Below, in pieces: positions 5,465 to 53,297 of a DNA stretch of 64,000 nucleotides (position 1 is its first letter; each line of letters opens with the position of its first letter). A program made the translations under genes and the position numbers. The notes below the pieces were generated by a model, which was not told the origin of the DNA, ran no database searches, and worked only from the letters and a program-made list of their open reading frames with translations. This DNA comes from Candidatus Cloacimonadota bacterium (GTDB lineage Bacteria > Cloacimonadota > Cloacimonadia > Cloacimonadales > TCS61): the NCBI GenBank assembly GCA_021735645.1, contig JAIPGP010000007.1, positions 36 through 64,035 of the forward strand, given 5' to 3'.

Positions 5465-5474
5465 ATTCCTGCCC

Positions 5475-5930
5475 TTACATTATTGAAATTAATTCACCGC
5501 CAAAGACAATATTGATCATTAATCTAACCAATACTGCGGCGACAAACATAACGGTTAAAGTTCTGGTGATGCCCTGTTTTGCCATGGCATTTGCTATCAA
5601 TCCCGGGATAATATAACCAATTACATTCACGGAGTAATCTGCCGGAATTCCCGAATAAATTCCATAAGTTCGCACCAGCCAGCCAAATATAAAGCCCAGC
5701 AGGATAGAGATCACCATACGGCGGCGCCCATATATGAACATGACCTTTCCCAGCAGTTTAACTATCAGATATACGGCAAAACTTATTATCAGAGTCCCCA
5801 GTATCGTCCAGGGCTGATGTAAAAACATGGCAATATATCCCGCAACTACTATACCTCCGGCTGTTGTACCAAAGGTTTCCAGAAAGAATAAACTTACTAA
5901 TACTCCTAAACCAATAGCAGCTTCAAACAT
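5475..5930 (-). CDS. pgsC: poly-gamma-glutamate biosynthesis membrane protein PgsC/CapC
   Basis: 151-aa polytopic membrane ORF. The N-terminus (GLGVLVSLFFLETFG..AGGIVVAGYIAMFLHQP) and GYIIPGLIANAMAKQG align by eye with B. subtilis PgsC (149 aa, ...GIIVPGLIANTIQRQG...). It starts 2 nt after pgsB. Confidence 0.85.
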   Translation of the reverse strand: MFEAAIGLGVLVSLFFLETFGTTAGGIVVAGYIAMFLHQPWTILGTLIISFAVYLIVKLLGKVMFIYGRRRMVISILLGFIFGWLVRTYGIYSGIPADYSVNVIGYIIPGLIANAMAKQGITRTLTVMFVAAVLVRLMINIVFGGELISIM

Positions 5931-5932
5931 TA

Positions 5933-36050: not shown

Positions 36051-36084
36051 ATAAAAAAGAAAAGCCGGAACTATAGTTCCGGCT
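36051..36084 (-). terminator. intrinsic terminator of the giant-protein/OmpA operon
   Basis: On the minus strand, AGCCGGAA-cuauag-UUCCGGCU is followed by UUUCUUUUUUAU. It lies 24 nt after the stop of 36108..38402. Confidence 0.85.
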
Positions 36085-36107
36085 CTTCAATCTCTCTCAC
36101 TCAAGCA

Positions 36108-38402
36108 TTACTGCTGCAGGATTTTGATTTCAATCCTTCGATTTTTAGCTCTGCCTTCAAAGGTATCATTTTTAGCGATAGGATTAGCGGAGCCATATCC
36201 TGTAGCAATCAGTCTATCTTCGGAAATACCAGCTGAGATCAGGTATGTGATAACTGCCTCAGCGCGTCTTTGCGAAAGATCAATATTATCGGTTTCGTTA
36301 CCGGTATTATCTGTGTAGCCGCAGATTTCGAGTTTCATTTTAGGATTAGCGATCATTTGAGCAGCCAGTTTGTTCAGTGATGGGTATGATTCGCGGGAGA
36401 GCACGGCTATGCCGGATTCGAAAAAGATATTTTCGAGAATACCGGTTTTCATACTTTCAACTTCCAGAATTTTGATTTCGATACGGCGGTTTTTCTCTCT
36501 ACCTTCCTTAGTATCGTTAGAAGCTATAGGATTAGCTTCTCCATAACCTTTTGCTCTAAGAACAGTAGGGTCAATATCTTTATTAATCAGATAATCGACA
36601 ACAGACTGAGCTCTTTTCTGTGAAAGCATAATATTATTGATTTCATCACCTACATTATCAGTAAAGGCAGCGATTTCTATTTTGACCGCGGGGTTATTGT
36701 TGAGCAGTTCTGCGAGCATATCGAGGCAAGCTTTACTGTAGGAGTTGATATCAACTTTCCCGGAAGCGAAGCCAACACATCCCAGCACGCCCTCTTTTAT
36801 AGAGCCGCTTTCCAGAATTTTAAGCTCAATCCGGCGATTCTTAGCGCGTCCTTCATCTGTTTTGTTAGTGGCAATCGGATAATCATATCCATACCCGACA
36901 GCATGTATATTTTCCGCCGGAATTCCCTTATTAACAATATAATTTTTAACAGCTTCAGCTCTGTAAAGAGAAAGCTTTCTATTGTACTGTTCTTCGCCGG
37001 TAATATCGGAGTGTCCTGCAATTTCGATTTTTGTGTCACCATATTCGGCGAGTACAGCAGCTACATTATCCAGAGTGCTATATGATTCCGGTTTAATAAC
37101 AGAACTATCATAATCAAAATTGATACTGAAGCGAGCGAAATCCAGCTTTGTGAGCATGATATTGAAATCAGTGATATCGTCTTCGCCGACATCCAGATAG
37201 CCCTTTTCAACAAAATAGTCATCAGCATTTACCAGATATTCATAAGTTTCACCCTTTTCCAGGTAGACTTCGAAGTAGCCATCAGCGTCAGTTATTACAG
37301 ACTCAGAATAGTCTTCTTCACCAACCATTTTCCAGTCGAGACGGGCAGAAACGGGTTTTCCCATTTCGTCCATCAGGTTGCCGGAAATCATAACGATAGT
37401 AACTTCCTCAGGAATAACTTCCGGTTCAATATAAGCAGTATCAATTATGGTCTCATAGATAATGACAGGTTCCGGAGCGGGTCTTTGTTCATCATCCCAG
37501 GGTCGGAAAACAAATGAGAACTGGTGTGTATCATTGAAAAGCTCATCATATTCTTCATTAATATAGGCATAATTAAACTCAATCCAGCGAATTTTAAGAC
37601 CAAAGCCAGCGGTAAAATGACCATTTCTAAGTCCGAGTCGGAGACCACCTTTAGTATTATTCAGGAAGCTGTCTTCTTCGTAAACCGGCATTATCCAGTT
37701 CCAGTATTCAGTACCCAGAGCGAGATTGAGTTTTTCGCCAGTTTCACCATACAGATCGGCAGCAACGGTTAGGTATTCATAAGGCATCCAGGCAGAGCCG
37801 ATATTATACTGCATTGGCACAGCCTCGCCGGCTATTTCAGATGAATAGAGGTCGCGCATCATTAGAGCGATTTTGAGGTTATATTTGGCAATCATATAGT
37901 TAAATCCCAGATCAATGCCAAATCCTGACTCAGTATCTTCATCAATAGTCGAAAGATAATATTTGAGTGTGATTCCGGCGTTAACACCTTTATAGGCATT
38001 TGCGTAACTGAGAGCCAGATTATTTTCACCGCTATTGAAATCGCCAGTAAAGTTATCAAATTCATCATAGCCTTCCAGGTCATTAAGACCGGCACTCATC
38101 CAGCTCAGGGCAATAGCCCCGAAATCGTATTTTTGTCCGAGGGCAAAATAACTGAGGCTGCGGTCAAGACCCAGATCATTCATAGTCGTGGCAAATTCAT
38201 AGGTATTCAGGAAGTTCAGGTTAGCGGGATTCCAGTAGGCGGAATTCACATTATCGAGACTGGCAGTAACGGCCCCTGCCATACCCATAGCTTTAGCATC
38301 AGTACCCATTTTCAAATATGAGGCTGCGTGATTATTATCAGCAGAAAGCATCCATGAAACCATCAGGATAACGAAGATAATTATTGTTGTCTTTTTCATC
38401 AT
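36108..38402 (-). CDS. outer-membrane protein: FadL/PorV-like beta-barrel + carboxypeptidase-regulatory-like domain + three OmpA-family peptidoglycan-binding domains
   Basis: 764-aa ORF with a signal peptide. The N-terminal motif GTDAKAMGMAGAVTASLDNVNSAYWNPANL is of the FadL/PorV barrel type. The C-terminus has three OmpA_C-like units, each ending NRRIE[LI]KIL (...GHSDITGEEQYNRKLSLYRAEAV..., ...FTDNVGDEINNIMLSQKRAQSV..., ...GYTDNTGNETDNIDLSQRRAEAV...). It starts 8 nt after the upstream stop. Confidence 0.8.
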   Translation of the reverse strand: MMKKTTIIIFVILMVSWMLSADNNHAASYLKMGTDAKAMGMAGAVTASLDNVNSAYWNPANLNFLNTYEFATTMNDLGLDRSLSYFALGQKYDFGAIALSWMSAGLNDLEGYDEFDNFTGDFNSGENNLALSYANAYKGVNAGITLKYYLSTIDEDTESGFGIDLGFNYMIAKYNLKIALMMRDLYSSEIAGEAVPMQYNIGSAWMPYEYLTVAADLYGETGEKLNLALGTEYWNWIMPVYEEDSFLNNTKGGLRLGLRNGHFTAGFGLKIRWIEFNYAYINEEYDELFNDTHQFSFVFRPWDDEQRPAPEPVIIYETIIDTAYIEPEVIPEEVTIVMISGNLMDEMGKPVSARLDWKMVGEEDYSESVITDADGYFEVYLEKGETYEYLVNADDYFVEKGYLDVGEDDITDFNIMLTKLDFARFSINFDYDSSVIKPESYSTLDNVAAVLAEYGDTKIEIAGHSDITGEEQYNRKLSLYRAEAVKNYIVNKGIPAENIHAVGYGYDYPIATNKTDEGRAKNRRIELKILESGSIKEGVLGCVGFASGKVDINSYSKACLDMLAELLNNNPAVKIEIAAFTDNVGDEINNIMLSQKRAQSVVDYLINKDIDPTVLRAKGYGEANPIASNDTKEGREKNRRIEIKILEVESMKTGILENIFFESGIAVLSRESYPSLNKLAAQMIANPKMKLEICGYTDNTGNETDNIDLSQRRAEAVITYLISAGISEDRLIATGYGSANPIAKNDTFEGRAKNRRIEIKILQQ

Positions 38403-38410
38403 GCACCCCC

Positions 38411-41400
38411 TTATTCCTTAATCGCCAGTTTGACGATTTTCTCCAGGGCTTTAGCCCCGACATCATCTTTTCCGGTTATATGTGCGAAATACACCCCTCG
38501 AGCCAGCTTAGTACCGGCGGTGGAGCCATTCCAGCCTTTAGTATAACCCATCCAGTTAATCTCATTAACACCTCTTCCCTGGAAATCTTTTGAGCATACT
38601 TTTCTACCGGCAAAGTCATAAATATCAATTGAAATATCAGCTAAAGGCGTAATAGTATTAATCACAAAATTTGTGCCTGTAACTGTGTTCATCGGGTTAG
38701 GATAGCAGTGAATATCATCGCTGCCGAGGTAAACAATGCTGACATTGAAAACCTGCATGGTAGAATCAGACGGGTCATAAGCGGTAATTTCAAAGTTATT
38801 GGTACCTGTCCAATCAGGCAGTCCCGAGAAAGTAGCAGTTTTAAGATCCGGCAGGAAAGTAAATGGGATGAGTTGAATATCAGGATCGCTGATATCGGTA
38901 GTATTTTCAATATTGATAGTAACTTCAGTTACCACGTTATTATCCACATCAGTGATGAAATCATTGAAATCAACCTCAAGCTGGTTATCGCCAACAATCT
39001 GGAAATCATTAAAAATGGAGATGACAGGAGCATCATTAACGGGATAAACTTCAACCAGGAAAGTATCTCGAACAGAATACAGATATCGATCATAGCAAAC
39101 AATGATAACTGGAGAGACCTGCATAGTGTAACTATTGGGGATAGAGATAATATTCATGATACTATCAGAAATAGCCACGGCAAAATTTTGTGAAGAAGAG
39201 CTGATACTGTATTCGAGATTACTTTGAGGAGTGTTGTCAATGAAATATGAATTAAGATTAAAGCTTTGGATCGGGAAATCTTCCTCCAAGGTCTGATCGA
39301 GCATGATAAGAGAATCATTAAGAGATGGGAAATCATTATTAACCGTACCGGAGAAAACAGCAGGGAAGAAGTTACCGCCTGGGGAATGGAATTCGAATTC
39401 ATCGAGTTCAACCACATCCTGTTCATATTCAGTAGAAACATATTTAAATTCAATGTTAATCAACGAGCCAATACCAAAAAGAGGATTAGTAAAATCATGT
39501 TCTATATAAATAGACCTCTCACCAGCAACCACTCTGGTAGTATCCCCGAGAGTACCTTCAAAATTAAAACCGAGGAATTCCAAAACAGTTGGATCAAAAT
39601 TTAACCAGAACTCGAAACCATAAATTTCCCAGTTTTCCAGAAGGATATTGACATTAACGGGAACAAGGAATTCTTCGCCCGGTTCAAGACCATCCAGGAA
39701 GGGAAGAGTGATAACTACATCGCCTATATCTGGAAAGCCTTCTTCAGGTATCAAAGTAATATTAACAATATCTGAACTGACAATTATCCCATCAGTAACA
39801 TGGAAGGCAACATTTTCATTTACATTCCAGGAGTCATCCACAATAGTAATAGTTAATCCATCAACAATAAAATCATTAATCAAATCATTTCCATCCACAT
39901 ATAGAGTAAGTGAATCACCATCAACATCATAGATATAACTGCTCAGGTCAAAAGTTTCCTGACTATTTTCAAGTCCGATAATACTGGGTGGAAGGTTGAT
40001 AAAGGGAGGATCATTAACCGGTTGTACAACGATGAGAACGGAATCAGTAGCTGTGAGACGCGTTGCATTATCATCTACAGTGAAATAGATCACTTCTTCA
40101 CCATTCCAGTTCATGTAACCTGCCATAATCACAGACAGACCTTGAATATATACCTGGATATTCTGATTACCGGTAACAGTAAGCGTGAGTGGGTCGTTAT
40201 CCACATCAGTAATATACTGAGCCAGATTAAAAGAGCTAACTTCATCTTCCACAAGCAGGAACTGATCTGGAAGAGTAATAAGTGGAGGATCATTAACAGG
40301 ATTAATAACCACTCTCATATTATCGATATTGCTGAGCAGTAGATCATGGACGGTAAATTCTACAAATTCGTAGCCCGTCCAGTCAGTTTCAGCGAGGATA
40401 GTAACATTCAGACCATCAGTTTCAACAATCAGGTGATCGCTGCCCTCCGAAGTTATATAAAGATCAGAATAATCATTATCAACATCATTGACGTAATTTG
40501 TGAAATCCAGAAGCAAAGAGTCACCCTCATTAACATTGACGCTGACAGGTAAATTGATGGTGGGGGCATCATTAACGGAATTAACAATCACCAGAACATC
40601 ATCGGAATCCTGCAGTCTGGCACCATCTTCATAAACAGTGAACGTGAGATTTTCTGTCCCGAACCAGTTTGCTATTGCTGAGAAGGTTACTTCAAGATCA
40701 ATAATATCAGCAATAATATTGGTATTTCCGGAAACCATAAGTGACAGGTCTTCTAAAGGAGTATCAATATCAGAAATATATGATGAGAAATCTCTTTCAT
40801 GAGTATTATCTTCATTAAATCTGAATTGAACAGGTAAATTAATCACAGGGGCATCGTTGATCGGCGTAACAATCACATTCACTTCATCATCATCAGTAGC
40901 CCGTGTTATCTGGTCGCTGACATAGAATGTGATGTCTTCATTACCATTCCAGTTAGCACCAGCAGTGAATGTAACCATGTACTGATTATAGGTGATATTG
41001 ATATTAACCGCATTTTGTGAAGAAAGCATGAGATTATCACCATCAACATCATTAATATACTGTCCGAAATCAACCACCAGACTTAAATCTTCACCAAAAC
41101 TGAAAGAATCAGGAAGATCTATTGTGGGGGCATCATTTACAGCAGCAACAATAAGATTCACATTATCAGAATCAATGCCACCGGCATTATCATTAATCTG
41201 GAATGAAATATTTACTGTGCCATTGAAATTAGGAACAGGAGTAAATGTAACCTGAGTTCCAGTGATATTGATGCCTACATTAGGATAGGTTCCCACAGAA
41301 GTGATTGTAATATCATCAATGACATTATCAATCAGAGTAATATATTCAGTGAAATCAACTACAAGAGCAGTATCTTCCACCGCATTGAAAGCATCAGGAA

Positions 41401-44400
41401 ATTCCAATACTGGCGGGTCATTTACAGGTGTAAAACTAACTTGAGCATCTTCAGAAGCATAATACTGACCGTCAGCAACAGTGAATTCATGTGGTTCCGA
41501 GCCAAACCAGTTGAGATTTGGAATAAAAGTAACCTGATATTCGTTCACAATAATCTGGACATTATCTCCTTCAGAGACAATGATTATAAGGTCTTCGGAA
41601 TCAATATCTGAGATGTAGGGTGTGAAATCAACGACCCCTTGCATGTCTTCCAGGAATGAGAAACCTCCAACAGGCAAATTAATCTGAGGCGGATCATTTA
41701 CAGCGGCTACATTCACGAGCACGGAATCTGAGTCGAGTAAACGTCCGGTCTGGTCACTCACATAGAAAGTAACCATTTCGGCACCGAACCAGTTTTCATC
41801 GCCAATAATATGAACTTCCAGAGGGTCAGTTACGCCATAAGAAATATTCAGGAATTGGGTATCATCATTTAAGATTATGATAACATCATTATCATAATCG
41901 CTGGCATAATTGCTGAAATCAGAGATAAATTCAACATCTTCCTGTAATAGAAATTCAGGAGGCAACAGCAATTGAGGAGGATCATTAACGGGAGTAACAT
42001 TGACCACAAAACCCTGTGAAACTGTTTGAGATTCGGGGTCATTGGCAATGATAATAATTCCAGCCTGTCCATACCAGTTCAAGAGAGAAGAAATCGTCAG
42101 GATAGAATCATCAATTTGAGCAATAACCTGAGCTGAATCATACTGGGCAGTATATTGCAGAGGGTCACCATCCTGATCATAGAAATATTCATTAAGATCA
42201 AAGGAGAAATCGGCGAAATCCTCGAGTTTATTAAAATCAGGGATATCCTGAATAACTACCGGGGGATAATTAACAGAAATCACGGTGATCAGCGTAGAAT
42301 CAACAGCAGTTAGTCCGCCATTATCAGTAGCATAGAAGAAGACAGTTTTTTCACCGAACCAGTTTTGGGCAGGCATGATAGTGACCACGCCATTCAAGAT
42401 GGAAATATTAAAGTTATTTTCTCCAGGTTCCAGAAATGAATAAACCAGAAAATCTGTGACTGTCAGGTTTAATTCCGGATCGGTATCATAATCAGCGAAT
42501 ACATTATTCAAGTTAATGGAACTATCTGAGCTGTTTTCCATGATTTCCAGATCAGGCAGTGGATTTTGCACATATGGTGGAGTATTAACAGGGGTTACAT
42601 AAACCATCACGGTATCAATATCAATAGCCCTTCCTACCATATCATTCACAGAGAACACGAGGGCTTCATAGCCATTCCAATTTGGTAAAGCGCTCAAATT
42701 AACCATTGTCCCGGCAATTTGAGGGAAGATATAATCAGTTTCATTAACGAGATTTATAGTTAAAATATCAAAGTCAATATCAAAAATGAACTGACTGAAA
42801 TCTATAGCCAGGTCAGAATTTTCCGGGAAAGAGAAGCCTTCATCAGGGAGATTAATACTGGGAGTATCATTAACTGGGATGACTGTAACATTAAAGACTT
42901 CTTCCACAAAAATAGCTCCATCATTAACAGAGATAGTAAACTGTTCCGTACCGTTCCAGTTTTGAGGTGCAGTAAATGTGGCGATTCCATTGATAAAGAC
43001 GGCATTGATATTAGGTACTGGAGCATTGGCATTCAAACTGATAAACAGGGAGTCACTATCGATATCGGAGATATAACCATTTCCCAGATTGAAATTAACC
43101 ATCAGAGAAGCATCTTCCAGGAAAGAGAAGCCTTCATAAGGTAGATTAATCACTGGAGCGTCATTAACGGAATTAACAATAACTACTGTACTGTCAGAAT
43201 TATAATAGTCATATCCGGGAGCATAAATAGTGAAAGTGATAGTTTCTGAGCCAAACCAGTTGGCAGCAGCCGATAAAGCTACTTGATTAGTAAGAGAATC
43301 AATCTGAACAATCACGTTTTGATTTCCCTCAGCAGAAAGATAGACCTGAATATTACTATCATTATAGATGTATTGATTGAAATCAACATTAATTGAGCTG
43401 TCTTCATTGAAAGAGAAGGAAGCTGGCAAATAGATAACCGGCATCGTAGTATCATCAGTAACAATGATATCTACCGCATCATCAGAAGTATCTTGTCCAT
43501 CATCTACCGTGAAAGTGATTCTTTCCACTCCCAGCCATTCATTAGTGGTAAATGTAACCTGCAAGCCATTAATTACAACACCAACATTCACATTACCCGA
43601 ATATGATAAAGAAAGTGGATCACCATCGAGATCAAAGACATAATTAATAAAATTGACATTATAGCTCTGGTTAGGATTGAAAACAAATTCCAGAGGCAGA
43701 TTTATCTGGGGAGGGTCATTGATGGGGATGACGCTGACATTAACATTATCTTCTGCGATAAACTCACCATCTGAAACATAAAAAGTCATAACTTCAAAAC
43801 CGTTCCAGTTATAATCTGGGGTAAAAGTAACCATCAATCCCTCAATACTGACATCAATATTTTCATTTCCTGCAACTGACAAGAAGAGAGAATCGCTGTC
43901 ATCGGTTATATACTGGTTGAAATCGCGCGTTAGTATTTGATCTTCATTAAAGGAGATCACAGGAGGAAGCTCAATCACAGGAGGGTCATTCGCGGGCAGC
44001 ACGAAAACTTCAGTAGTATCAGAGACAATTGCTCTTCCCTGGTTATCGTCAGCGGAGAAAACGAGTATTTCGGAACCAAACCAGTTTTCTAATGCACTGA
44101 AAGTGACCATAAGCTGATCAATATCCACAATTACATTTTGATTACCTGATACAGAAAGAGTAATTGTATCCAGGTCAATATCAAAAATATACGGGGCAAA
44201 GTCAACTTGCAGGGACTGATCTTCATGCAATGTATAGGAATCCTCAATATCCATAACAGGGGGATCATTTAAAGGATAAACGATGATCTCGACTTCATCA
44301 TCAGACATTTGGGTTTCATCATAAACTGTGAAAGTGATCATTTCTGAGCCATTCCAATCAGGCAGTGGCACAAATTCAACAACCAGACCAGTAATATTAA

Positions 44401-46108
44401 CCTGAACATTAATACCTTCCGCAGCCAGGTTCAGGATTTCACTATCAACGTCATACACGTATCCTTCAGCTTCAAAATCTACAGTGATACTGGTATCTTC
44501 ATCTAACTCGAAATAATCTGGTAACTGGATAACCGGTGCATCAGGCACAGAAATTACATTAATAGTAACGTCATCGGAATCAGAAAGACCCGAAGTATCC
44601 ATAACAGTGAAAGTGATCAGCTCTGATCCGAACCAGTTTTGCGGGGCAGTGATATTAAAAACAGCTGGAGCAATAGTAAAGAAATTCAATTCGATATTGC
44701 CAGAGAAGTAGATATTAAGCTCAGAATCATCAACATCGCTGATAAAATCAGTTAAATCCAGCATCAGGTTTTCATCTTCATTAAAGTGATACTCATCCTG
44801 GGGGATATTGATAACCGGGGCGTCATTTTCAGGTTCTATCACAATTTCCACAAAATCATTATCGGTAAGGCGTGACATTTCATCTGAAATAACAAAATTA
44901 AGCACTTCCGAGCCAAACCAGTTATCATCCGGGATCAGAGTCACGGAAAAGCCGTCAATTTCGACAGATATATTATCATTATCGGTGACAGTAAGAGTAA
45001 GCTCAAGATTATCAATATCAGAAATATACTGAGCTAGATCAAGAGTTTCCGGATTATCTTCTGTCATAAAATACTGCGTAAAGGGGATATCAATCACAGG
45101 TGCATCATTTACCGAGTTCACAGTAACCAGCACCTCCTGAGTAGAACTTGCGCCAAACACATCAGTAGCCTCAAAAGTGACCGTTTCTGAACCATACCAG
45201 TTGGCGGGAGCAGAGAATTGCACAACTAAGCCGGCAATTTCAATGATGACATCTTCAGTCTGATAGGCAGAAAGAACATCAATCATATCTCCTTCGGGAT
45301 CAGAGATGTAATTAGAAAAGTATTCGATAAGATCCTGATCCTCATCAAAGTTGAAGCCCAGAGGAGGGAACAGAAATACAGGAGGATCATTGACGGGTTC
45401 CACAGTAATGGTAACCAGTGTTTCTTCTCCGTTAAGCACGCCATCTGAAGCCTGATAGGAGAAGTAATCCACACCAAAGAAATTGGTATCAGGCTGATAG
45501 GTGAAAGCGCCATCACTATTAAACAGTAATACACCATGAACAGCATCAGTGATCAGAAGAGCCGTTAGATTGAGACCATCTGGATCGAAGTCATTAGCCA
45601 GGACGCCATTTTCAGCATCAATACTAAGTAACATATCTTCTGAAACAGTATAATCATCGGGTTGTGAGACGGGTGGCAAATCCGCCGGAGCATATAGCTG
45701 ATATGGCTCATAAAGCGAACCTGCAGCCGAATTATCTGCGAAATAAACCAGTGAATCACCTTCGCATTCATATACTAAATCTGTGTCAGCATCATAGATC
45801 ATAAAACTGATAATTTCCTGAGCCGAAGATTCAGCATTACTGCGGACAGTAAGATACCACATAGCATACGGACCTACCTGGTCCCAGACAGCAATAGCAC
45901 GACAATCACTAACACCACCGGGTCCAAATGCTGCCAGAATGTTTTCGGGATTATCGCGATTAAACTCTTGCTCATATAAGGAAACTTCAGCATAGACCTG
46001 CATATTGTACTGATTACCTGTCATTGGAGTCCAAATTGGTGGATCAGCAAACATCAGGCAGGTAAGTACTAAAGCAAAAGCAAATAATAATATTTTTTGT
46101 TTATACAT
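38411..46108 (-). CDS. giant surface protein: N-terminal shared module, ~20 tandem-95/cadherin-like repeats, cohesin-like domain, variant T9SS C-terminal domain
   Basis: 2565-aa ORF with signal peptide MYKQKILLFAFALVLTCLMFA. There are about 20 repeat boundaries of the V-N-D-[AP]-P-[VQTLF]-[IL] type at ~95-100 aa spacing. A cohesin-like segment sits at nt ~39340-39733. The C-terminus CYPNPMN...IDIYDFAGRKV...GVYFAHI is CTD-like. Confidence 0.8.
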   Translation of the reverse strand: MYKQKILLFAFALVLTCLMFADPPIWTPMTGNQYNMQVYAEVSLYEQEFNRDNPENILAAFGPGGVSDCRAIAVWDQVGPYAMWYLTVRSNAESSAQEIISFMIYDADTDLVYECEGDSLVYFADNSAAGSLYEPYQLYAPADLPPVSQPDDYTVSEDMLLSIDAENGVLANDFDPDGLNLTALLITDAVHGVLLFNSDGAFTYQPDTNFFGVDYFSYQASDGVLNGEETLVTITVEPVNDPPVFLFPPLGFNFDEDQDLIEYFSNYISDPEGDMIDVLSAYQTEDVIIEIAGLVVQFSAPANWYGSETVTFEATDVFGASSTQEVLVTVNSVNDAPVIDIPFTQYFMTEDNPETLDLAQYISDIDNLELTLTVTDNDNISVEIDGFSVTLIPDDNWFGSEVLNFVISDEMSRLTDNDFVEIVIEPENDAPVINIPQDEYHFNEDENLMLDLTDFISDVDDSELNIYFSGNIELNFFTIAPAVFNITAPQNWFGSELITFTVMDTSGLSDSDDVTINVISVPDAPVIQLPDYFELDEDTSITVDFEAEGYVYDVDSEILNLAAEGINVQVNITGLVVEFVPLPDWNGSEMITFTVYDETQMSDDEVEIIVYPLNDPPVMDIEDSYTLHEDQSLQVDFAPYIFDIDLDTITLSVSGNQNVIVDIDQLMVTFSALENWFGSEILVFSADDNQGRAIVSDTTEVFVLPANDPPVIELPPVISFNEDQILTRDFNQYITDDSDSLFLSVAGNENIDVSIEGLMVTFTPDYNWNGFEVMTFYVSDGEFIAEDNVNVSVIPINDPPQINLPLEFVFNPNQSYNVNFINYVFDLDGDPLSLSYSGNVNVGVVINGLQVTFTTNEWLGVERITFTVDDGQDTSDDAVDIIVTDDTTMPVIYLPASFSFNEDSSINVDFNQYIYNDSNIQVYLSAEGNQNVIVQIDSLTNQVALSAAANWFGSETITFTIYAPGYDYYNSDSTVVIVNSVNDAPVINLPYEGFSFLEDASLMVNFNLGNGYISDIDSDSLFISLNANAPVPNINAVFINGIATFTAPQNWNGTEQFTISVNDGAIFVEEVFNVTVIPVNDTPSINLPDEGFSFPENSDLAIDFSQFIFDIDFDILTINLVNETDYIFPQIAGTMVNLSALPNWNGYEALVFSVNDMVGRAIDIDTVMVYVTPVNTPPYVQNPLPDLEIMENSSDSSINLNNVFADYDTDPELNLTVTDFLVYSFLEPGENNFNISILNGVVTIMPAQNWFGEKTVFFYATDNGGLTAVDSTLITVISVNYPPVVIQDIPDFNKLEDFADFSFDLNEYFYDQDGDPLQYTAQYDSAQVIAQIDDSILTISSLLNWYGQAGIIIIANDPESQTVSQGFVVNVTPVNDPPQLLLPPEFLLQEDVEFISDFSNYASDYDNDVIIILNDDTQFLNISYGVTDPLEVHIIGDENWFGAEMVTFYVSDQTGRLLDSDSVLVNVAAVNDPPQINLPVGGFSFLEDMQGVVDFTPYISDIDSEDLIIIVSEGDNVQIIVNEYQVTFIPNLNWFGSEPHEFTVADGQYYASEDAQVSFTPVNDPPVLEFPDAFNAVEDTALVVDFTEYITLIDNVIDDITITSVGTYPNVGINITGTQVTFTPVPNFNGTVNISFQINDNAGGIDSDNVNLIVAAVNDAPTIDLPDSFSFGEDLSLVVDFGQYINDVDGDNLMLSSQNAVNINITYNQYMVTFTAGANWNGNEDITFYVSDQITRATDDDEVNVIVTPINDAPVINLPVQFRFNEDNTHERDFSSYISDIDTPLEDLSLMVSGNTNIIADIIDLEVTFSAIANWFGTENLTFTVYEDGARLQDSDDVLVIVNSVNDAPTINLPVSVNVNEGDSLLLDFTNYVNDVDNDYSDLYITSEGSDHLIVETDGLNVTILAETDWTGYEFVEFTVHDLLLSNIDNMRVVINPVNDPPLITLPDQFLLVEDEVSSFNLAQYITDVDNDPLTLTVTGNQNIQVYIQGLSVIMAGYMNWNGEEVIYFTVDDNATRLTATDSVLIVVQPVNDPPFINLPPSIIGLENSQETFDLSSYIYDVDGDSLTLYVDGNDLINDFIVDGLTITIVDDSWNVNENVAFHVTDGIIVSSDIVNITLIPEEGFPDIGDVVITLPFLDGLEPGEEFLVPVNVNILLENWEIYGFEFWLNFDPTVLEFLGFNFEGTLGDTTRVVAGERSIYIEHDFTNPLFGIGSLINIEFKYVSTEYEQDVVELDEFEFHSPGGNFFPAVFSGTVNNDFPSLNDSLIMLDQTLEEDFPIQSFNLNSYFIDNTPQSNLEYSISSSSQNFAVAISDSIMNIISIPNSYTMQVSPVIIVCYDRYLYSVRDTFLVEVYPVNDAPVISIFNDFQIVGDNQLEVDFNDFITDVDNNVVTEVTINIENTTDISDPDIQLIPFTFLPDLKTATFSGLPDWTGTNNFEITAYDPSDSTMQVFNVSIVYLGSDDIHCYPNPMNTVTGTNFVINTITPLADISIDIYDFAGRKVCSKDFQGRGVNEINWMGYTKGWNGSTAGTKLARGVYFAHITGKDDVGAKALEKIVKLAIKE

Positions 46109-46241: not shown

Positions 46242-49200
46242 TTACTTGATCATCACCATTTTACGGGTCGCTGAATACTGAGAGGTACTAATCGAATAGA
46301 AATAGATGCCACTGGCGACCTGATTTCCATTGTCATTAGTTCCGTCCCAGACGACAGAATATGATCCAGCTTCCCTTGGTTCTCTCACGAGAGCCTTTAT
46401 CTTCTCTCCTCTCAAATTGAAGATATTTAAGGTAACGTAATCCTGAGCAGCTAATTCAAAGCAGATAGTAGTTTCAGGATTAAACGGATTAGGATAGTTT
46501 TGATTAAGGGCATTTACGGGAACAATCTCATGTTCCTCTTCCTCAACTGGATAGAAAACAGCCAGATAAGGTTCAAAGGGAGATCCGATCTTAGAATCAG
46601 CCTGGAATGTAATCATATCAAGACTTGTGTTTTCGATATTGTTTTCATCCAGAAGGCGAATATAGAGAGGATCACCGGCATTATCACCTACAATAGTGAA
46701 ATACCAGAAGCCCTGATCAAGATATTCACTTTCCTGCCAGATACCATGAGCCCGGCAGTTATCATCAGCATCGAAAATTCCCATGGCTCTTCCTTCAGCC
46801 CATTCAAATGTTTCGTCATTATATTCAGCCGATAGCATGAGGATCATGTTATCCGAATTTCCAGGAATAATTTCCCATTCAGCGGGTGAATTATCCGGCA
46901 TAGAAATAGAATAGTTCTGGTTTCTGGTAACAACCGGATAGAGAGGATAAACCAGGACATCCGGGTTTTCCATCTGAATCTTGTAGCCAATACCAGGTGC
47001 CATGGTTTGAAGATCACCAAACCAGATGCCATTACCTACTTCTGGGAAGTATTCAGCTGATTGGGTTTGATTTTTAACGATTTGGACATTATCGAGAATT
47101 GAGAAGAGTGCTGAAGACAAAGAATCTATTTCAGGTGGATAATACGCAATCCAGTTCCAGTCAGCGATCATCTCAATAGGAGTATCAGACATAATGCGGT
47201 TACCAGTTAGCGAGAATCCTGGAGCAGGGTCAGTTACATTCACCAGGTAACCTCCGCCATCGATAATAAACTCTAAATCACCAAACCAGCCATATAAATC
47301 AGGATAGTAGTCAGCAGACTCAGTTTGATATTTTACGGTGTTAACATTATCACCTAAAGGTCCAAATACATATCCCAGGGAATAATCTTCCGGCTGAACA
47401 TAGAAAGAAATCCAGTTCCACATGACATTAAGATCAAGGTATTGAGTAATAGTGTAGGTAATATCAACCAGGAATGTATCAGAGACGGTGGCACGATTGA
47501 CGTTATCATCTGCCGTAACGATTACCTGAGAAACGCCATACCAGTTTATAATCGAAGATATAGAGAGCAATCCATCTGATTCAGTAGCGCTAATTTCCTG
47601 ATCATTGAAATCAACATAGTAGGTTAACATATCTCCATCAACGTCATAGAAATGATCTGAAAGCACAATATCAAATGGAGCGAAATTGATTTCTACATAC
47701 TGATCAGGGATTGGAGTCTGGACTACAGGAGCATCATTAACTGGAATAATCTGGAAATTCACAATATCAGAAGTACTAGCCATGTAAGAATCATAGACAG
47801 TGAAAGTGATATTTTCATCGCCATTCCAATCAGGATATGGAGCAGTTACCGTAGCAAAGTGAGTAACCGGATTGATATCAACATTCAAGTCCACATTTCC
47901 TGAATACTCCCAGATCAGGGTAGGATCGGGATCATCAACATCAGTGATATAATAATTCAGATTAATCGGATTAAAGAGGTTTCCTTCCAGTATCTGCTGG
48001 TCAGGGATGAGGAACTGGAAGAATGGTACATCATTAACAGGATTCACAACAACATTGACAGTGTCATAGACAACAAATCTTGATTCATCGGTCAGTGAGA
48101 AAGTGATAATCTCTGTACCAAACCAGTTCACATCAGCCGAGAAAGTAACAATCGTGCCCACAATGTCAATAATGACATGATTTGCACCTAAGGCATTCAG
48201 TTCCAATTCCTCTGGAGGAGTATCTATATCACAAACACAACCTTCATCAATTAAGTCAATAACCAGGGAAGTATCTTCGTCAAAATCGTACTGGGGAGGT
48301 AGCATTAAAAGAGGTGGATCATTCACTGGAGAAACATTCATAATAAAGATATCAGAGGCTGAAAGACGATTATAACCATCCTCAGCAACAACAGTGATTT
48401 CGGTATTTCCATTCAGGTTAAGAATACTGCTAATCTCGAGCAGATTATCCTGAATATCCAGCATCACGATAGAATCCGCAGCAGTGGCGGAATAAGAGAG
48501 TAAGTCCCCATCGACATCAGCAAAATACAGATTTAGATCAATGGAATACGTCTCAAAATCCTCATCACGGAATTGATCAGAAATGTTGCTAACAAGATAG
48601 GGAGGATCATTTACTCCATTAACTGTTACCAGGAAAGTATCAGTAACAACTAACCTGCAAAGCTGATCTGAGGCAAATATCGTTACTTCTGTGACACCAG
48701 TCCAATCCGGAACTGAATGAATCAGCATTTCTGAGCCATTTAGCATCAGGGCAATATGCAGATTATTAAAGGTAGCATTATAAAACAATTGATCACATTC
48801 AATATCACCAAAGTTTTGAGCCAAATCATAAGAATAAGGTGCAAAATCTTCAGTAAATTCCAGATCATCCAATGGAGTTATAATATATGGAGGATCATTG
48901 ACGGGCATAACGACTACATGGATAGTATCAGTAACAACAGCTCTACCCATCAGGTCATCTGCTGTGATATAAGCATCAAAAGGACCAAACCAGTTTTCAA
49001 CAGCCGTAACGGTCATTATATTGCCAGCAATATTCACAATGCCATTCGGGTCAGAGACCATAGCAGAATATGAAAGTAAATCTCCATCAACATCGAAGAA
49101 CTTTGTATCCAGATCAACAGGGTCTGAGACAGTATCCTCATTAATTATGATATCTTCCAAAGCGGTTAAAACCACAGGAGCATCATTAACCGGATAAACA

Positions 49201-52200
49201 GTAACAACAAACTCATCAGTAACAAAAGCTCTGAGCTGCTGATCATTTGCTGTTACCGAGATAATTGTCTCACCATTCCAGTTATCAATTGAAGTTATTT
49301 CCAGGAGATTTCCGATGACATTAGCAGTAATTTCCGAAGCTGTATAATCAACAGAATATACTAAGCCATTATCATCATCGGCAAAGTATTCATTCAGATT
49401 GATGTATTGATTATCGAAGTCTTCAAAATAGAACCTGTCAGGGAGCGGAACAGCAATATAAGGAGGGTCATTAACAGGATTAACCGTTAACTGGAATTGA
49501 TCAGTAACAGAAAGTCTGTCATGACCGTCATTTGCTGTGACGCTAATATTAGTGAGACCATTCCAGTTAAGCACTGGAGCGATCTCGAGAACTGTACCAT
49601 TCAAAACCACATCGACATTATCTGAATTGAAGTCTATACTATATTCAAGTACAGCATCATCAACATCGGCAAAATAACCAGCGAAATCGATAGTGAAGGG
49701 CTGGAAATCTTCATCTCTGGTAATATCATCAAAATAATTGACGATATATGGCGGATCGTTAACAGGTTCCACAATCACATCAAATACATCAGAAACAAGA
49801 TAACGATAATCATCCTGAGCACTAACCGTAATTGGTGTTGTGCCATACCAGTTTTCTTGAGGAGTAAAATACAAGTTTGGATAAGAAATAGTCACAACAA
49901 TATTTTGAGTTTCATAAGAGGCAGAATACTGCAGAACATCGCCATCTACATCAGCAAAATAATCATTCAAGTTGATAACTTGAGTAGGAGCATCCTCCAG
50001 AATATACTGGTCAGGAATAGGAGTAACTGTAGGTGCATCATTCACAGGATTAACAATCACATTCACATAATCATTAGAGAATTCGGGACCATTGGCATTG
50101 GAAACGATGAAATTGATCATTTCTGAACCATTCCAGTTGGGATAAGCTCCCAAAGTAACATTTAAACCGCTGACATCAACCGTAATCATGCTATTATCTT
50201 CAGCGGTAACTACCAGGTCAAAGCCATCTGGATTACTGATATATGATGCAAAATTAACATCAAGAGTTTCATCTTCATCAAAAGAGAAAGAAGTCGGAAG
50301 AGTGATTGTGAGAGCGTCTGCTTCTGGCAGAACTATAACCGTAACCATATCTTCGGCATTATACTCACCATCGAAAACATTGAAAGTAACAAATTCGGTG
50401 CCATTCCAGTTTTCAAGATTTGAGAAAGTAACCATCAGCCCATCAATATCAATCAAGACATTAGTATTACCATTAGCAGTTAATATAAGTATATCACTAT
50501 CTACATCAGTGATATACTGGTCAAAATCAATTACCAGAATATTATCTTCATAGAACGCGATAGAGTCAGGTAAGGCGATAGTTGGAGGGTCATTTACGGG
50601 CTGAATATTTACCCAGAATGCATCCTGCGCAGTGGCTCTGACGCCATCATCGGCAGTTACAGTTATTTCGACATTACCGGACACGTTGGGCAGGGGAGAA
50701 ATATATAAAGTTCCATAAGAAATATAAGCCTGAATGATATTAGCATCTAATTCAACTGAGAATGACAGAGTATTATCATAATCATAGAAATGTGCATTAA
50801 GATTTATATCGAAAGCAGTAAAATCTTCAAAAACATTATAATCATCTATAGGATCAGACACAAATGGCGGATCATTAACCGGCTGAACAATGATCAGGAA
50901 AGTATCAGAAGCGGGATCATTTAAGGGGACATTGTCAGAAGCATAAACAGTAACCGAGGCATTGCCATTCCAGTTAAAGACAGAATTAACGGTCATTACG
51001 TTTCCAACGATAGAAATACCTATCTGACTGGAATTATAATCTGCCGTGTATGTTAAAAGATCATTTTCCGGATCAGAGAAGTAAGTGCTCAGATCAATAT
51101 CGAAAGGTATAAAATCCTCAAGTTTATTATAATCATCCATAGGTGAAACCAGAACTGGAGGGTCATTAACCGGCATAACTTCAATCGTAAATGTATCAGA
51201 AGCTGTCAACCTCAGACCGAATTCATCCTGAGCAGTTACCGTGACATCAACCAAACCATTCCATTGAGGTACGGAAGAAATTGTCATGATCTCATCAACG
51301 ATATTAATAACGACAGTATTTTGAGTACTCAGAGAAGCTGAAAATGATAATATATCATTATCGACATCAGCAAAATAATCATATAAGTTCAGACTGAAAT
51401 CAGCAAAACCTTCTTCTTTTAACTGATCCGGGATAAACTCATACACATATGGAGGGTCGTTAACAGGGTTAACTATAGCATTAAAAGTATCAGAAATTTC
51501 ACCGTAGGCATCTGCTGCGATAACGGTAATTGGTGAAGTTCCAAACCAGTTCGTAACTGGCTGGAAATAGAGCATATTATCAACGATCCAGGCATTCATT
51601 TGCATATTATTGAATTGAACAGTATAAACCAGAGGGTCATTATCATAGTCATAGAAGAAATTATTCAGGTTTCTGCTGATAGCAGCTGCGTCTTCCTGCA
51701 TAGGAGTATCTGGTAAAGGGGTGATAACAACTGGAGGGTCATTAACTTCCGAGACAGTGATCTGGAAATTATCACTGGTAGTAAAGCGGGTGAAATCATC
51801 ACTTGCTGAAACAACAACGTTGGTGGTGCCTGTCCAGTTTGGCACAGAGTTGATAGTCAATAATGTATCAACAATAGAAATGAGAACATGATCATTATTG
51901 AACTGAACGCTATAAGTAAGGGAAACATTATCAACATCCGTGAAATAATCCAATAAATTGATCTGATAATCTACGAAATCTTCTGTTAAGAAAAGATCGG
52001 GGAATTCAATAATCAATTCAGGAGGATCATTAACAGGATTAACTGTAACATTAACAGTGTCATAAACCGTATATTCCGCATCACTGGCAGAGAAAATTAT
52101 CGTCTCAGTACCAAACCAGTTTGGCTGATTGGTGATAGTAACAAGACCATATCCATCAATAGCTATATTTAGATTGATATTATTTGAGAATCCATATTCT

Positions 52201-53297
52201 AATACATCTCCATCCGGATCAGAAAAAATATAGCCCAGGCTGAGATGTTCATCTGATGTATCCTCATTAAACGAGAAATCAGGAATTGGATTTGCCACAA
52301 CAGGTGGATCATTTACGGAAGTAACTTCCACAGGGACAGTATCTGAAGCAATTGCTCTGGCAGTATTATCATTAATAGTAAATGTGATGTATTCAATTCC
52401 ATTGAATCCGCTCTGGGGGGTGAAAGTTACATTATATCCGGTAATAGAAACCTGAATTTGCTGATTATTAGAATATGACAAGGTCAGGATAGTATTATCG
52501 ACATCAAATATATATTCTGTGAAATCAACCTGATAGACAGTATCTTCCTGGAAGGAGAAACCTTCATCCGGTAAGTTAATAGTCGGTGGATCATTCACCG
52601 GCTGTACTTGGATTTCCACAAGAGCATTTGAAGTTTCATAATCACCATCGGTAGCATAATATTCAAAGAAATCATTACCGAAATAATTTAGATTCGGCTG
52701 ATAAGTAAAAGAGCCGTCATCATTGAAGTTAAGCACGCCATTATCGACATCAGCAGCAAGTACGACCCAGAATTCGTCCAGATAATCCAAGTTAATATAA
52801 TCATTGATAAGCACTCCAGATTCCGTAGAGATATAAAGGAGTGAATCTTCATAAGCGCCATACATATCATCAATGACATATGGTATGGTAAGCAGGAAAG
52901 TATCATCATAAGAGCCAATAACAATATTATCGACAAACATTGAACTTTCCCGGCAATCCAGAACCTGATCACCTGCCGCATCATAGATTTTGTAAGTAAT
53001 GATTTCATTATCTCCGGGTTCAGCATTGCTGACGATAGTCATGTACCAGAGCTGGTACTGGTTATATTCATTCCAAAAGGCAATAGCCCGGCAATCACTT
53101 TCACCACCAGGACCAAAGGCAGCAACGATATTTTCCGGATTTGAGTTTGTGAAATACTGAGCCATGAAATCAACTTGAGAATAGACCTGCATGCTATACT
53201 GAGTTCCAGGAATTACCTCCCATTCTGGAGCTACAGCAGCTAAACTCACAAACAAGACCAAAAAAACGACTAAACCAACGCATTTTAACATTTTCAT
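46242..53297 (-). CDS. giant surface protein: N-terminal shared module, ~18 tandem-95/cadherin-like repeats, duplicated NWNWI domain, C-terminal shared module, T9SS C-terminal sorting domain
   Basis: 2351-aa ORF with a signal peptide. There are about 18 VNDPP/VNDAP repeat boundaries. The C-terminus NYPNPFNPETTICF..LNIFNLRGEKI..GIYFYSIS..KMVMIK is a CTD. Confidence 0.8.
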   Translation of the reverse strand: MKMLKCVGLVVFLVLFVSLAAVAPEWEVIPGTQYSMQVYSQVDFMAQYFTNSNPENIVAAFGPGGESDCRAIAFWNEYNQYQLWYMTIVSNAEPGDNEIITYKIYDAAGDQVLDCRESSMFVDNIVIGSYDDTFLLTIPYVIDDMYGAYEDSLLYISTESGVLINDYINLDYLDEFWVVLAADVDNGVLNFNDDGSFTYQPNLNYFGNDFFEYYATDGDYETSNALVEIQVQPVNDPPTINLPDEGFSFQEDTVYQVDFTEYIFDVDNTILTLSYSNNQQIQVSITGYNVTFTPQSGFNGIEYITFTINDNTARAIASDTVPVEVTSVNDPPVVANPIPDFSFNEDTSDEHLSLGYIFSDPDGDVLEYGFSNNINLNIAIDGYGLVTITNQPNWFGTETIIFSASDAEYTVYDTVNVTVNPVNDPPELIIEFPDLFLTEDFVDYQINLLDYFTDVDNVSLTYSVQFNNDHVLISIVDTLLTINSVPNWTGTTNVVVSASDDFTRFTTSDNFQITVSEVNDPPVVITPLPDTPMQEDAAAISRNLNNFFYDYDNDPLVYTVQFNNMQMNAWIVDNMLYFQPVTNWFGTSPITVIAADAYGEISDTFNAIVNPVNDPPYVYEFIPDQLKEEGFADFSLNLYDYFADVDNDILSFSASLSTQNTVVINIVDEIMTISSVPQWNGLVDVTVTAQDEFGLRLTASDTFTIEVMPVNDPPVLVSPMDDYNKLEDFIPFDIDLSTYFSDPENDLLTYTADYNSSQIGISIVGNVMTVNSVFNWNGNASVTVYASDNVPLNDPASDTFLIIVQPVNDPPFVSDPIDDYNVFEDFTAFDINLNAHFYDYDNTLSFSVELDANIIQAYISYGTLYISPLPNVSGNVEITVTADDGVRATAQDAFWVNIQPVNDPPTIALPDSIAFYEDNILVIDFDQYITDVDSDILILTANGNTNVLIDIDGLMVTFSNLENWNGTEFVTFNVFDGEYNAEDMVTVIVLPEADALTITLPTSFSFDEDETLDVNFASYISNPDGFDLVVTAEDNSMITVDVSGLNVTLGAYPNWNGSEMINFIVSNANGPEFSNDYVNVIVNPVNDAPTVTPIPDQYILEDAPTQVINLNDYFADVDGDVLQYSASYETQNIVVTISYPNLYFTPQENWYGTTPITVSAQDDYRYLVSDVFDVIVEPVNDPPYIVNYFDDITRDEDFQPFTIDFAGYFADVDDAVLEYSIDFNSDNVDVVLNGTVLEIAPVLNWNGLTNISVTANDGHDRLSVTDQFQLTVNPVNDPPYIAVPLPDRFYFEDFDNQYINLNEYFADDDNGLVYSVDYTASEITANVIGNLLEITSIDNWNGETIISVTANDQQLRAFVTDEFVVTVYPVNDAPVVLTALEDIIINEDTVSDPVDLDTKFFDVDGDLLSYSAMVSDPNGIVNIAGNIMTVTAVENWFGPFDAYITADDLMGRAVVTDTIHVVVMPVNDPPYIITPLDDLEFTEDFAPYSYDLAQNFGDIECDQLFYNATFNNLHIALMLNGSEMLIHSVPDWTGVTEVTIFASDQLCRLVVTDTFLVTVNGVNDPPYLVSNISDQFRDEDFETYSIDLNLYFADVDGDLLSYSATAADSIVMLDIQDNLLEISSILNLNGNTEITVVAEDGYNRLSASDIFIMNVSPVNDPPLLMLPPQYDFDEDTSLVIDLIDEGCVCDIDTPPEELELNALGANHVIIDIVGTIVTFSADVNWFGTEIITFSLTDESRFVVYDTVNVVVNPVNDVPFFQFLIPDQQILEGNLFNPINLNYYITDVDDPDPTLIWEYSGNVDLNVDINPVTHFATVTAPYPDWNGDENITFTVYDSYMASTSDIVNFQIIPVNDAPVVQTPIPDQYVEINFAPFDIVLSDHFYDVDGDMLTYYVDFNDQEISATESDGLLSISSIINWYGVSQVIVTADDNVNRATVSDTFLVDITYTITQYLDLNVMWNWISFYVQPEDYSLGYVFGPLGDNVNTVKYQTESADYYPDLYGWFGDLEFIIDGGGYLVNVTDPAPGFSLTGNRIMSDTPIEMIADWNWIAYYPPEIDSLSSALFSILDNVQIVKNQTQSAEYFPEVGNGIWFGDLQTMAPGIGYKIQMENPDVLVYPLYPVVTRNQNYSISMPDNSPAEWEIIPGNSDNMILMLSAEYNDETFEWAEGRAMGIFDADDNCRAHGIWQESEYLDQGFWYFTIVGDNAGDPLYIRLLDENNIENTSLDMITFQADSKIGSPFEPYLAVFYPVEEEEHEIVPVNALNQNYPNPFNPETTICFELAAQDYVTLNIFNLRGEKIKALVREPREAGSYSVVWDGTNDNGNQVASGIYFYSISTSQYSATRKMVMIK

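Follow-up and report, generated by a model that had tools for sequence, protein, structure and literature searches.

Cloacimonadota are abundant uncultured syntrophs of anaerobic digesters, where adhesion between cells and of cells to substrate is probably important. We analyzed a 64,000-nucleotide stretch of DNA from a Candidatus Cloacimonadota bacterium (contig JAIPGP010000007.1, assembly GCA_021735645.1; this whole 64-kb stretch is called the window, and all coordinates refer to it). The subject of the analysis is a gene in which an outer-membrane barrel related to type IX secretion system (T9SS) proteins is fused to three OmpA_C domains, next to the gene of a giant adhesin that carries a T9SS C-terminal domain (CTD).

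The target gene and its operon

A single open reading frame fills positions 36108..38402 of the minus strand exactly, and the reading frame, its domain matches and a structure model describe the 764-aa product as a putative carrier barrel fused to a predicted peptidoglycan anchor. It forms the final cistron of an operon, all of whose features given below lie on the minus strand. Directly upstream is the gene of the candidate cognate cargo, a 2565-aa adhesin with a signal peptide and Big_9/cadherin-like repeats (38411..46108; Pfam matches to Big_9 in 13 stretches, to Cadherin_4 and to Cadherin_5). Its stop codon is separated from the target ATG by an intergenic spacer of 8 nt that resembles a Shine-Dalgarno sequence (GGGGGTGC, 38403..38410), which indicates co-transcription and translational coupling of the two genes. 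An intrinsic terminator-like hairpin with a 13-bp stem (7 GC pairs) and a T-run (36059..36088) lies 20 nt past the target stop and marks the end of the operon.

In the AlphaFold2 model of the protein (mean pLDDT, the predicted local distance difference test score, of 80.7; built on 55 homologs), the signal peptide is followed by a short helical plug-like segment (aa 27-64) and by 14 beta-strands (aa 69-299, mostly with a pLDDT of 85-96); the Pro-rich linker is disordered and leads to a sandwich of 7 strands (aa 336-417), after which come three OmpA_C folds connected via short flexible linkers. The signal peptide, read from the sequence, covers aa 1-21 (38340..38402) up to the cleavage junction MMKKTTIIIFVILMVSWMLSA/DNNH, and inspection of its sequence revealed no lipobox Cys. 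In an alignment with paralogs the A-DNN(H/S) junction is kept, with A21, N23 and N24 invariant. The barrel with its plug-like segment occupies aa 22-302 (37497..38339), and the Pro/Glu-rich, presumably periplasmic linker aa 303-335 (37398..37496; delimited by alignment with paralogs and by low pLDDT at aa 316-332). The beta-sandwich, which is CarboxypepD_reg-like and is referred to below as the CRD, occupies aa 336-417 (37152..37397). The OmpA_C domains follow at aa 426-531 (36810..37127), aa 539-648 (36459..36788) and aa 655-764 (36111..36440), each found with PF00691 and with a custom hidden Markov model (HMM).

This arrangement agrees with an earlier reading of the window made from the sequence only. 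The FadL/PorV-type N-terminal motif that it claimed is present as GTDAKAMGMAGAVTASLDNVNSAYWNPANL (aa 33-62), the Pro-rich linker was found as RPWDDEQRPAPEP (aa 300-312), and the three OmpA units end, as it stated for NRRIE[LI]KIL, in NRRIELKIL, NRRIEIKIL and NRRIEIKIL.

The barrel belongs to the PorV/PorQ superfamily

The N-terminal 302 aa matched the NCBIfam model of the PorV/PorQ family, NF033709, with E=1.2e-23 over model positions 2-324 of 326, at a bit score slightly below the curated cut-off. When the structure model was compared to known structures with Foldseek, the best match in the PDB was Flavobacterium johnsoniae PorV (8gl6_F, E=5.7e-11, TM-score 0.61), and the PorV chain 6h3i_F was also among the top barrel matches, whereas the match to the FadL fold was poorer (E=1.3e-7, TM-score 0.42). 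A profile built on the barrel family in turn matched the PorV sequence 6h3i_F at E=8.6e-30. The Toluene_X/FadL model PF03349 reached 14.7-17 bits against a cut-off of 29.7 (E=0.002-0.011), and this match was limited to the N-terminal motif (aa 18-76, ~55 residues). As the PorV/PorQ profile and the PorV fold match exceed those of Toluene_X and FadL, the barrel is of the PorV type and not of the FadL type, and a FadL/TodX transporter was rejected. Thus, the PorV-like barrel proposed in the sequence-only reading held up in the profile and structure searches, and the outcome that it had named as speaking against this, an affinity to FadL without one to PorV, was not seen in either the HMM or the fold comparison.

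The barrel could not be assigned to any characterized member of the superfamily. The equivalog model of PorV (NF033710) gave 36.7 bits against a cut-off of 250 and that of PorV2 (NF052325) 49.1 bits against 325; the PorQ model (NF033711) scored highest, with 64 bits against 220, and covered the N-terminal half alone. Neither Pfam PorV (PF19572) nor the PorP/SprF model TIGR03519 (cut-off 90.55 bits) matched the barrel at E<=10. Orthology with bona fide PorV, PorQ or PorV2 was therefore rejected, all equivalog cut-offs having been missed. The barrel belongs to the broad PorV/PorQ superfamily and is an ortholog of none of the characterized T9SS barrels (PorV, PorQ, PorV2, PorP/SprF).

An exhaustive HMMER search of 1.84 billion representative proteins yielded 4525 barrel relatives at E<=1e-3. 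Among the 149 closest representatives, 136 were standalone barrels of ~300 aa, 13 carried a single C-terminal OmpA_C and none carried more than one. The 120 best matches in a 5.8-billion-protein database had a single OmpA_C in 108 cases, and three or more copies were confined to 11 orthologous clusters of full-length relatives at 90% identity, one of them with four copies and one labelled Candidatus Cloacimonetes; the orthologs bear the database label 'OmpA family protein'. The impression of the sequence-only reading that a triple OmpA_C array on a barrel is uncommon was therefore correct. One 921-aa ortholog (P0009) has a fourth OmpA_C after a Lys/Pro/Glu-rich spacer (…AAGSSARKNEPKKIQKPKPPVKPAPDNKQENQKPAEKMQEK…), which indicates that the OmpA_C copy number is still evolving in this clade.

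The alignment of a narrow set of barrels that was used for a genome scan of barrel relatives (alignment A3) also locates the fusion point. Standalone paralogs stop at …RF-COOH, an aromatic C-terminus as is usual for a beta-barrel, and it is precisely at this point that the target, with FRPW, runs on into the linker. This means that the extension was appended to the periplasmic C-terminus of the barrel. Since both barrel termini are periplasmic, the C-terminal extension is expected to be periplasmic as well.

Members of the barrel family were also found in other phyla. The nearest Bacteroidota relatives (tblastn; L015-L088, from Flavobacteriia, Bacteroidales and others) are uniformly ~355-370 aa long, and the three that were tested reached 448-485 bits with the model NF052325 ('putative type IX sorting system protein PorV2'), a family on which we found almost no literature. 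Members from Calditrichota (L014, L020 and L075; 323-352 aa, L014 with 196 bits on PorV2) sit after genes for a small polytopic membrane protein and a ribulose-phosphate-epimerase-like protein, with no CTD gene in this context, indicating that cargo linkage is not general to every branch of the family.

The periplasmic extension resembles the C-terminal half of PorE

Taken alone, the middle segment matched CarboxypepD_reg weakly (E=0.017). A much longer alignment was obtained with BLASTP: aa 329-531, which comprise the CRD and the first OmpA_C, align over 209 aa with 35% identity (E=4e-33) to a 642-aa PorE-like protein from another Cloacimonadota locus (L009), in its C-terminal 206 aa. That protein itself scores 220 bits on the PorE model NF052230. 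Positions 422-604 of this model align to aa 336-514 of the target, and the target's total score (235.7 bits; cut-off 600) is inflated because its OmpA domain is present three times. Of the features of PorE, a four-domain lipoprotein, the target has the CRD and OmpA_C, and it is missing the tetratricopeptide repeats (TPR), the WD40/beta-propeller domain and the lipobox. The contiguous alignment of CRD and OmpA_C shows that the target holds this half of a PorE-like protein without the TPR/beta-propeller half. The CarboxypepD_reg-like middle domain of the sequence-only reading is therefore real, both as a 7-strand sandwich in the model and as a segment that aligns to the CRD of PorE.

The three OmpA_C domains claimed there are real and complete too, PF00691 matching three stretches with 229 bits against a cut-off of 27.2. 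The copies are 47-51% identical to one another, so the duplication is not recent. All three retain the motif (S/T)D-x7-N…LSxxRA…NRRxE, the D-x7-N and RA elements being kept from the first domain on, and crystal structures of OmpA_C domains fit the model domains at 1.2-2.4 Å root-mean-square deviation. PorE's C-terminal domain structure (6TOP) is among the fold matches, and the D-x7-N positions correspond to PorE D576 and N584. In PorE, the D576A/N584A double substitution abolishes function while the single substitutions behave like wild type, and PorP is bound by the WD40 domain but not by the CRD or OmpA_C (PMC12773672). The loss of TPR and WD40 is consistent with a covalent joining of barrel and anchor, because in PorE it is WD40 that makes the contact to the barrel. 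Given the conserved motif, the array is predicted to bind peptidoglycan, and a tethering of the barrel to the cell wall is the natural reading of these domains.

A CTD subclass is linked to the barrel

The CTD of the 2565-aa adhesin (38414..38698) scored 28.7 bits on the type A model TIGR04183 (cut-off 23) and 19.6 bits on the type B model CHU_C (cut-off 27). All three giant adhesins of the operon pass TIGR04183, and none of their CTDs had a convincing type B match. Membership of the barrel in PorP/SprF and of the CTD in type B was rejected on TIGR03519 and on TIGR04131/CHU_C, and the functional analogy to that system alone is retained below. A low-confidence model of the CTD has 7 strands (pLDDT 64.6, from a multiple sequence alignment of just 8 window sequences) and weak fold matches to PorU, a T9SS substrate CTD, FlgD and FnIII, none of them at E<=0.001.

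By alignment, this CTD (IYDFAGRK…ARGVYFAH…EKIVKLAIKE) belongs to a subclass with the signature IYDFAGxK…(A/G)RGxYFA(R/H)…EKxxKxAxK, which differs from the generic signature found in this window, YNxKGxK…SGxYFY…KKxxxxK. CTDs from fused and from unfused cassettes (see below) are 37% identical to each other, compared to 24% identity with the seven generic CTDs of the window. Within the operon the subclass is confined to the 2565-aa adhesin, the other two giants being generic. None of the seven generic-CTD genes of the window is followed by a barrel gene, and the target is the only barrel gene seen in these 64 kb. The CTDs of fused cassettes (38414-38698 (−) in the window, L001 and L003) also carry an insertion (WMGYTKGWNGSTAG) and an extended tail (…KLAIKE/D) that are absent from the CTDs of unfused cassettes, and these may be an adaptation to the fused barrel.

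Related genomes contain the same elements as separate genes. In a 2.88-Mb Cloacimonadota genome the closest standalone paralog, a 318-aa protein 39% identical to the target, is preceded by a 5692-aa Ig-repeat CTD protein and followed by a 755-aa PorE-like protein (209 bits on the PorE model). This three-gene order recurs in four further Cloacimonadota species genomes, so that in five genomes a giant CTD protein is followed by a 316-334-aa barrel and then by a 630-755-aa PorE-like protein. Such unfused cassettes (L008-L012) share with the target the phylum, the barrel family (36-41% identity), the CTD subclass and the PorE-type module; they differ in using two genes, barrel and PorE-like, where the target is one, and their PorE-like protein keeps the N-terminal TPR/propeller region and has a single OmpA_C. 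Orthologs of the fused gene, 69-81% identical, keep the order of adhesin and fusion. The subclass signature is recognizable (KIYDFAGxFV, GVYLAHVV, ILKVAFKK) even on the proteins encoded immediately upstream of distant single-OmpA fusions, in which the barrel shares 28-29% identity with that of the target, and a weaker version (YDWNG, GVYLLRIV, KVAVWNER) occurs in another lineage. In one unplaced lineage (L006/L007; GCA_003552215.1, PUKF01000043.1, 5966-10903) two mini-cassettes follow each other, a 186-aa CTD protein with a 308-aa barrel and a 189-aa CTD protein (54 bits to the C-terminus of PorZ) with a 481-aa barrel-OmpA fusion, both flanked by Peptidase_S74 (tailspike-chaperone) proteins.

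Does the CTD subclass predict the barrel? JGI metagenome contigs were scanned in the reciprocal direction with patterns derived solely from the CTD subclass. The scan returned 79 loci, 70 of them with enough downstream sequence, and in 65 of these 70 a PorV/PorQ-family barrel gene lay 1-101 nt downstream of the CTD gene; the five barrel-negative loci had the weakest CTD matches. Four of the 65 barrels were triple-OmpA fusions, one was a single-OmpA fusion and 60 were standalone, nearly all of the latter followed by a 590-930-aa protein with a terminal single OmpA_C. Dereplication left 36 barrel clusters at 90%, 14 at 70% and 4 at 50% identity, and all 14 clusters at 70% adjoin a CTD gene. The linkage persists down to ~30% CTD identity in both fused and unfused forms. 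A Fisher test of CTD class against the presence of a downstream barrel gave an odds ratio of 31.6 (p ~1e-14; the loci are non-independent), with a motif pattern that misfiled five true subclass CTDs (YDFGG, YDFSG, FDFSG) as generic.

Proposed function and alternative explanations

The 764-aa protein is probably a T9SS carrier and anchor dedicated to one cargo, the adjacent 2565-aa adhesin. The PorV/PorQ-family barrel in the outer membrane would bind the adhesin's CTD as it leaves the translocon and retain it, in the way that PorQ holds PorZ or that PorP/SprF-type barrels hold type B cargo. The linker, the PorE-type CRD and the three OmpA_C domains would fix the barrel to the wall by non-covalent, multivalent contacts. 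The outcome would be a static, load-bearing attachment of a very long adhesin that is independent of the lipopolysaccharide (LPS)-sortase route, and three OmpA_C domains would raise the avidity for peptidoglycan, which is sensible for a loaded filament of >2500 residues. With regard to evolution, the target is a fusion of a barrel gene and a PorE-like gene that are separate in other Cloacimonadota; the TPR and beta-propeller half of PorE, through which PorP is bound in P. gingivalis, was lost and two OmpA_C copies were gained. The covalent link would have made the docking half redundant.

The 8-nt operon linkage, the adhesin's own CTD subclass and the conserved adjacency point to a carrier dedicated to one adhesin, and with this context the closest analogue is PorP/SprF with PorE, or PorQ-PorZ, rather than PorV. 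Type B substrates require a cognate PorP/SprF-like barrel that is encoded immediately downstream, stays bound and anchors the cargo, and if the operon also holds a PorE-like gene, the complex is believed to be static and fixed to the wall (PMC9143113, PMC12618676). Examples of such Bacteroidota operons are PG1035-PorP-PorE of Porphyromonas gingivalis, where the three proteins form a complex and PorP-like proteins anchor type B cargo (PMC9143113), and Fjoh_3952-Fjoh_3951-Fjoh_3950 of F. johnsoniae. The gene order is the same as here, an adhesin with a dedicated CTD, its cognate PorV-like barrel and a CRD plus OmpA_C wall anchor, and the proposed outcome, a static wall-anchored adhesin complex, is shared (PMC9143113, PMC12618676). 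The likeness is one of context, namely the 8-nt gap after the adhesin and the PorE-like gene next in line in unfused cassettes, and not of sequence. In contrast to these operons, the target barrel has no TIGR03519 match, the cargo CTD follows the type A and not the type B model, barrel and anchor are joined in a single polypeptide that lacks the TPR and beta-propeller of PorE and carries three OmpA_C domains rather than one, and the host phylum is Cloacimonadota.

PorZ and PorU provide a type A parallel, as they retain their CTDs, which are held by cognate PorV-like barrels (PMC10202324). In PorQ-PorZ, a pair from the attachment complex of P. gingivalis, and in the target with its adhesin alike, a barrel of the PorV/PorQ family would keep hold of a type A-like CTD that is not cleaved (PMC10202324); however, the target is far below the 220-bit PorQ cut-off, PorQ has no periplasmic extension, and PorZ is a delivery factor for A-LPS whereas the candidate cargo of the target is a giant adhesin. 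PorV of F. johnsoniae (6H3I/8GL6 chain F) shares the 14-strand FadL-like barrel at just 16% identity and, unlike the target, is a freely diffusing, recycled general shuttle without OmpA_C. With PorE (PG1058 of P. gingivalis) the target shares the homologous CRD and OmpA_C, with D-x7-N kept in all three copies, but it differs in having no lipoprotein signal, no TPR and no WD40/beta-propeller, and in that its OmpA_C is triplicated and attached to a barrel. Finally, the periplasmic C-tail of SprF determines the carrier's coupling partner, in that case the moving GldK track (PMC12635249). The idea in the sequence-only reading of a PorV-like barrel that three peptidoglycan-binding domains tether to the wall is thus retained, whereas PorV, the shuttle, in the role of a fixed docking platform is a less fitting interpretation, because of the PorV equivalog score and of a context that indicates a carrier dedicated to one adjacent adhesin.

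Several observations weigh against the dedicated carrier and anchor. The NF033709 score of the target barrel, 84.2 bits, is slightly below the curated cut-off of 90, which relatives do exceed (L009 barrel, 90.3 bits; fused L006 protein, 156.8 bits), and the barrel is not an equivalog of any characterized T9SS barrel. The CTD match is to type A rather than type B, so the analogy to PorP/SprF is functional and contextual and does not amount to family membership. No T9SS core gene was seen within the 64-kb window. The distant fused homolog of L006 pairs with small proteins carrying generic-looking CTDs, and the Calditrichota and Bacteroidota (PorV2) relatives of the barrel do not adjoin CTD genes. 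Many of the 65 loci are redundant, stemming from closely related Cloacimonadota of digester metagenomes, so that the counts are not independent events and the synteny could partly reflect common descent. Moreover, a barrel pinned to the wall must still reach the translocon.

A first alternative is that the protein is a core component of the T9SS, i.e. a Cloacimonadota equivalent of PorP-PorE that anchors the secretion apparatus to the wall and acts for many cargos. Many type A cargos of P. gingivalis depend on PorP-PorE for their secretion (PMC12773672), and the window is rich in CTD cargo genes and holds both a barrel and a PorE-type module. We regard this explanation as unlikely, as no more than ~11 clusters (90% identity) have the fused form, related genomes hold paralogous unfused cassettes that are each joined to their own giant adhesin, and the matching CTD subclass is found solely on the adjacent adhesin, from which the 7 other CTD proteins of the window differ.

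Less likely still is a general envelope stabilizer, an OmpA-like tether between outer membrane and peptidoglycan with a 14-strand barrel instead of one of 8 strands, whose proximity to the adhesin would be incidental. The combination of barrel and OmpA_C does mirror the architecture of OmpA, recurs with a single OmpA_C on 13 of the 149 closest barrel representatives and has earned the orthologs their OmpA label, but incidental proximity is at odds with the 8-nt coupling to the adhesin gene, with the adjacency conserved in 14 barrel lineages and the 65/70 outcome of the reciprocal CTD-to-barrel test, and with the co-variation of CTD subclass and barrel presence; the distribution is also narrow for such a role. 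The narrow distribution and the strict operon linkage likewise make it unlikely that the target is the sole housekeeping OmpA of the genome.

The three OmpA_C domains bear on whether the protein might be the organism's PorV proper, the general type A shuttle from the translocon to the PorU sortase, in a wall-tethered form. They would pin a shuttle and thus prevent shuttling. PorV is the best structural match and the adjacent CTDs fit the type A model TIGR04183, but the PorV equivalog score lies below those of PorQ and PorV2, Pfam PorV does not match, and most Cloacimonadota lack the gene, with the unfused cassette in its place, all of which makes this explanation very improbable. Finally, the protein might be a FadL/TodX-type channel that takes up hydrophobic compounds and is joined to a wall anchor. 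The weak Toluene_X match on the N-terminal motif and the presence of FadL among the fold matches could be cited for this, but it is hardly credible given that the PorV-family profile scores better by ~20 orders of magnitude, that the PorV fold fits better and that the genomic context is secretion cargo and not catabolism.

In Bacteroidota, the means by which T9SS adhesins without a link to LPS remain on the cell are still under study, and the current view involves PorP/SprF carriers, PorE and coupling through the C-tail. Here, a putative carrier barrel is naturally and covalently fused to the peptidoglycan-binding half of PorE, which speaks for the static barrel-PorE complex that has been proposed and for the view that the PorE propeller is a mere docking module. 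The principle of cognate CTD, carrier barrel and PorE anchor is known; the novelty lies in the lineage, the fusion and the triple OmpA_C, and in the literature searched, an incomplete library, we found no description of such a fusion or CTD subclass. The locus also provides evidence that the cognate CTD/carrier principle reaches beyond Bacteroidota, with other barrel and CTD lineages, and the simple CTD signature would predict which giant adhesins are wall-anchored in Cloacimonadota.

A broader interpretation, plausible but held more tentatively, is that Cloacimonadota and some unplaced metagenomic lineages have a third branch of T9SS cargo sorting beside type A/PorV-PorU and type B/PorP-SprF. 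In this branch a dedicated PorV/PorQ-family barrel, itself linked to the wall by a PorE-type module, would recognize a CTD subclass derived from type A (IYDFAG…GxYFA…KxAxK) and hold it permanently. Were this so, the fused gene would be a natural 'Rosetta stone', showing that carrier barrel and wall anchor work together as a single load-bearing unit and that the TPR/propeller half of PorE exists solely to dock onto the barrel.

Other features of the window

Two further giant adhesin genes lie upstream in the same operon direction. The second encodes a 2351-aa protein (46242..53297, −) with a generic CTD (YNxxGxK/SGxYFY/KxxxxK), and the third a protein of at least 3528 aa with PKD, Big_9 and cadherin-like repeats and also a generic CTD (53373..63959, −). 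Five more CTD cargo genes are present in the window. Some of these adjoin pgsB (386 aa), pgsC (151 aa) and a gene for a 366-aa 'poly-gamma-glutamate system protein' (4364-7093, −), a poly-gamma-glutamate synthesis cluster that suggests a capsule-like surface polymer. Two tandem paralogous proteins of 1153 aa (7146-10607 and 10693-14154, −) have generic type A CTDs, which are 82% identical to each other, and weakly resemble both the PorU2-related N-terminal region and Prc-like peptidases. The gene of a 351-aa LVIVD-repeat protein (19516-20571, −) immediately precedes that of a 1001-aa CTD cargo protein (16498-19503, −) whose C-terminus resembles the CTDs of PorU and PorZ. Near the start of the window, at 425-1753 on the plus strand, lies the gene of a 442-aa LruC-domain protein (TIGR04456, E=3e-39), a family otherwise known from Leptospira lipoproteins.

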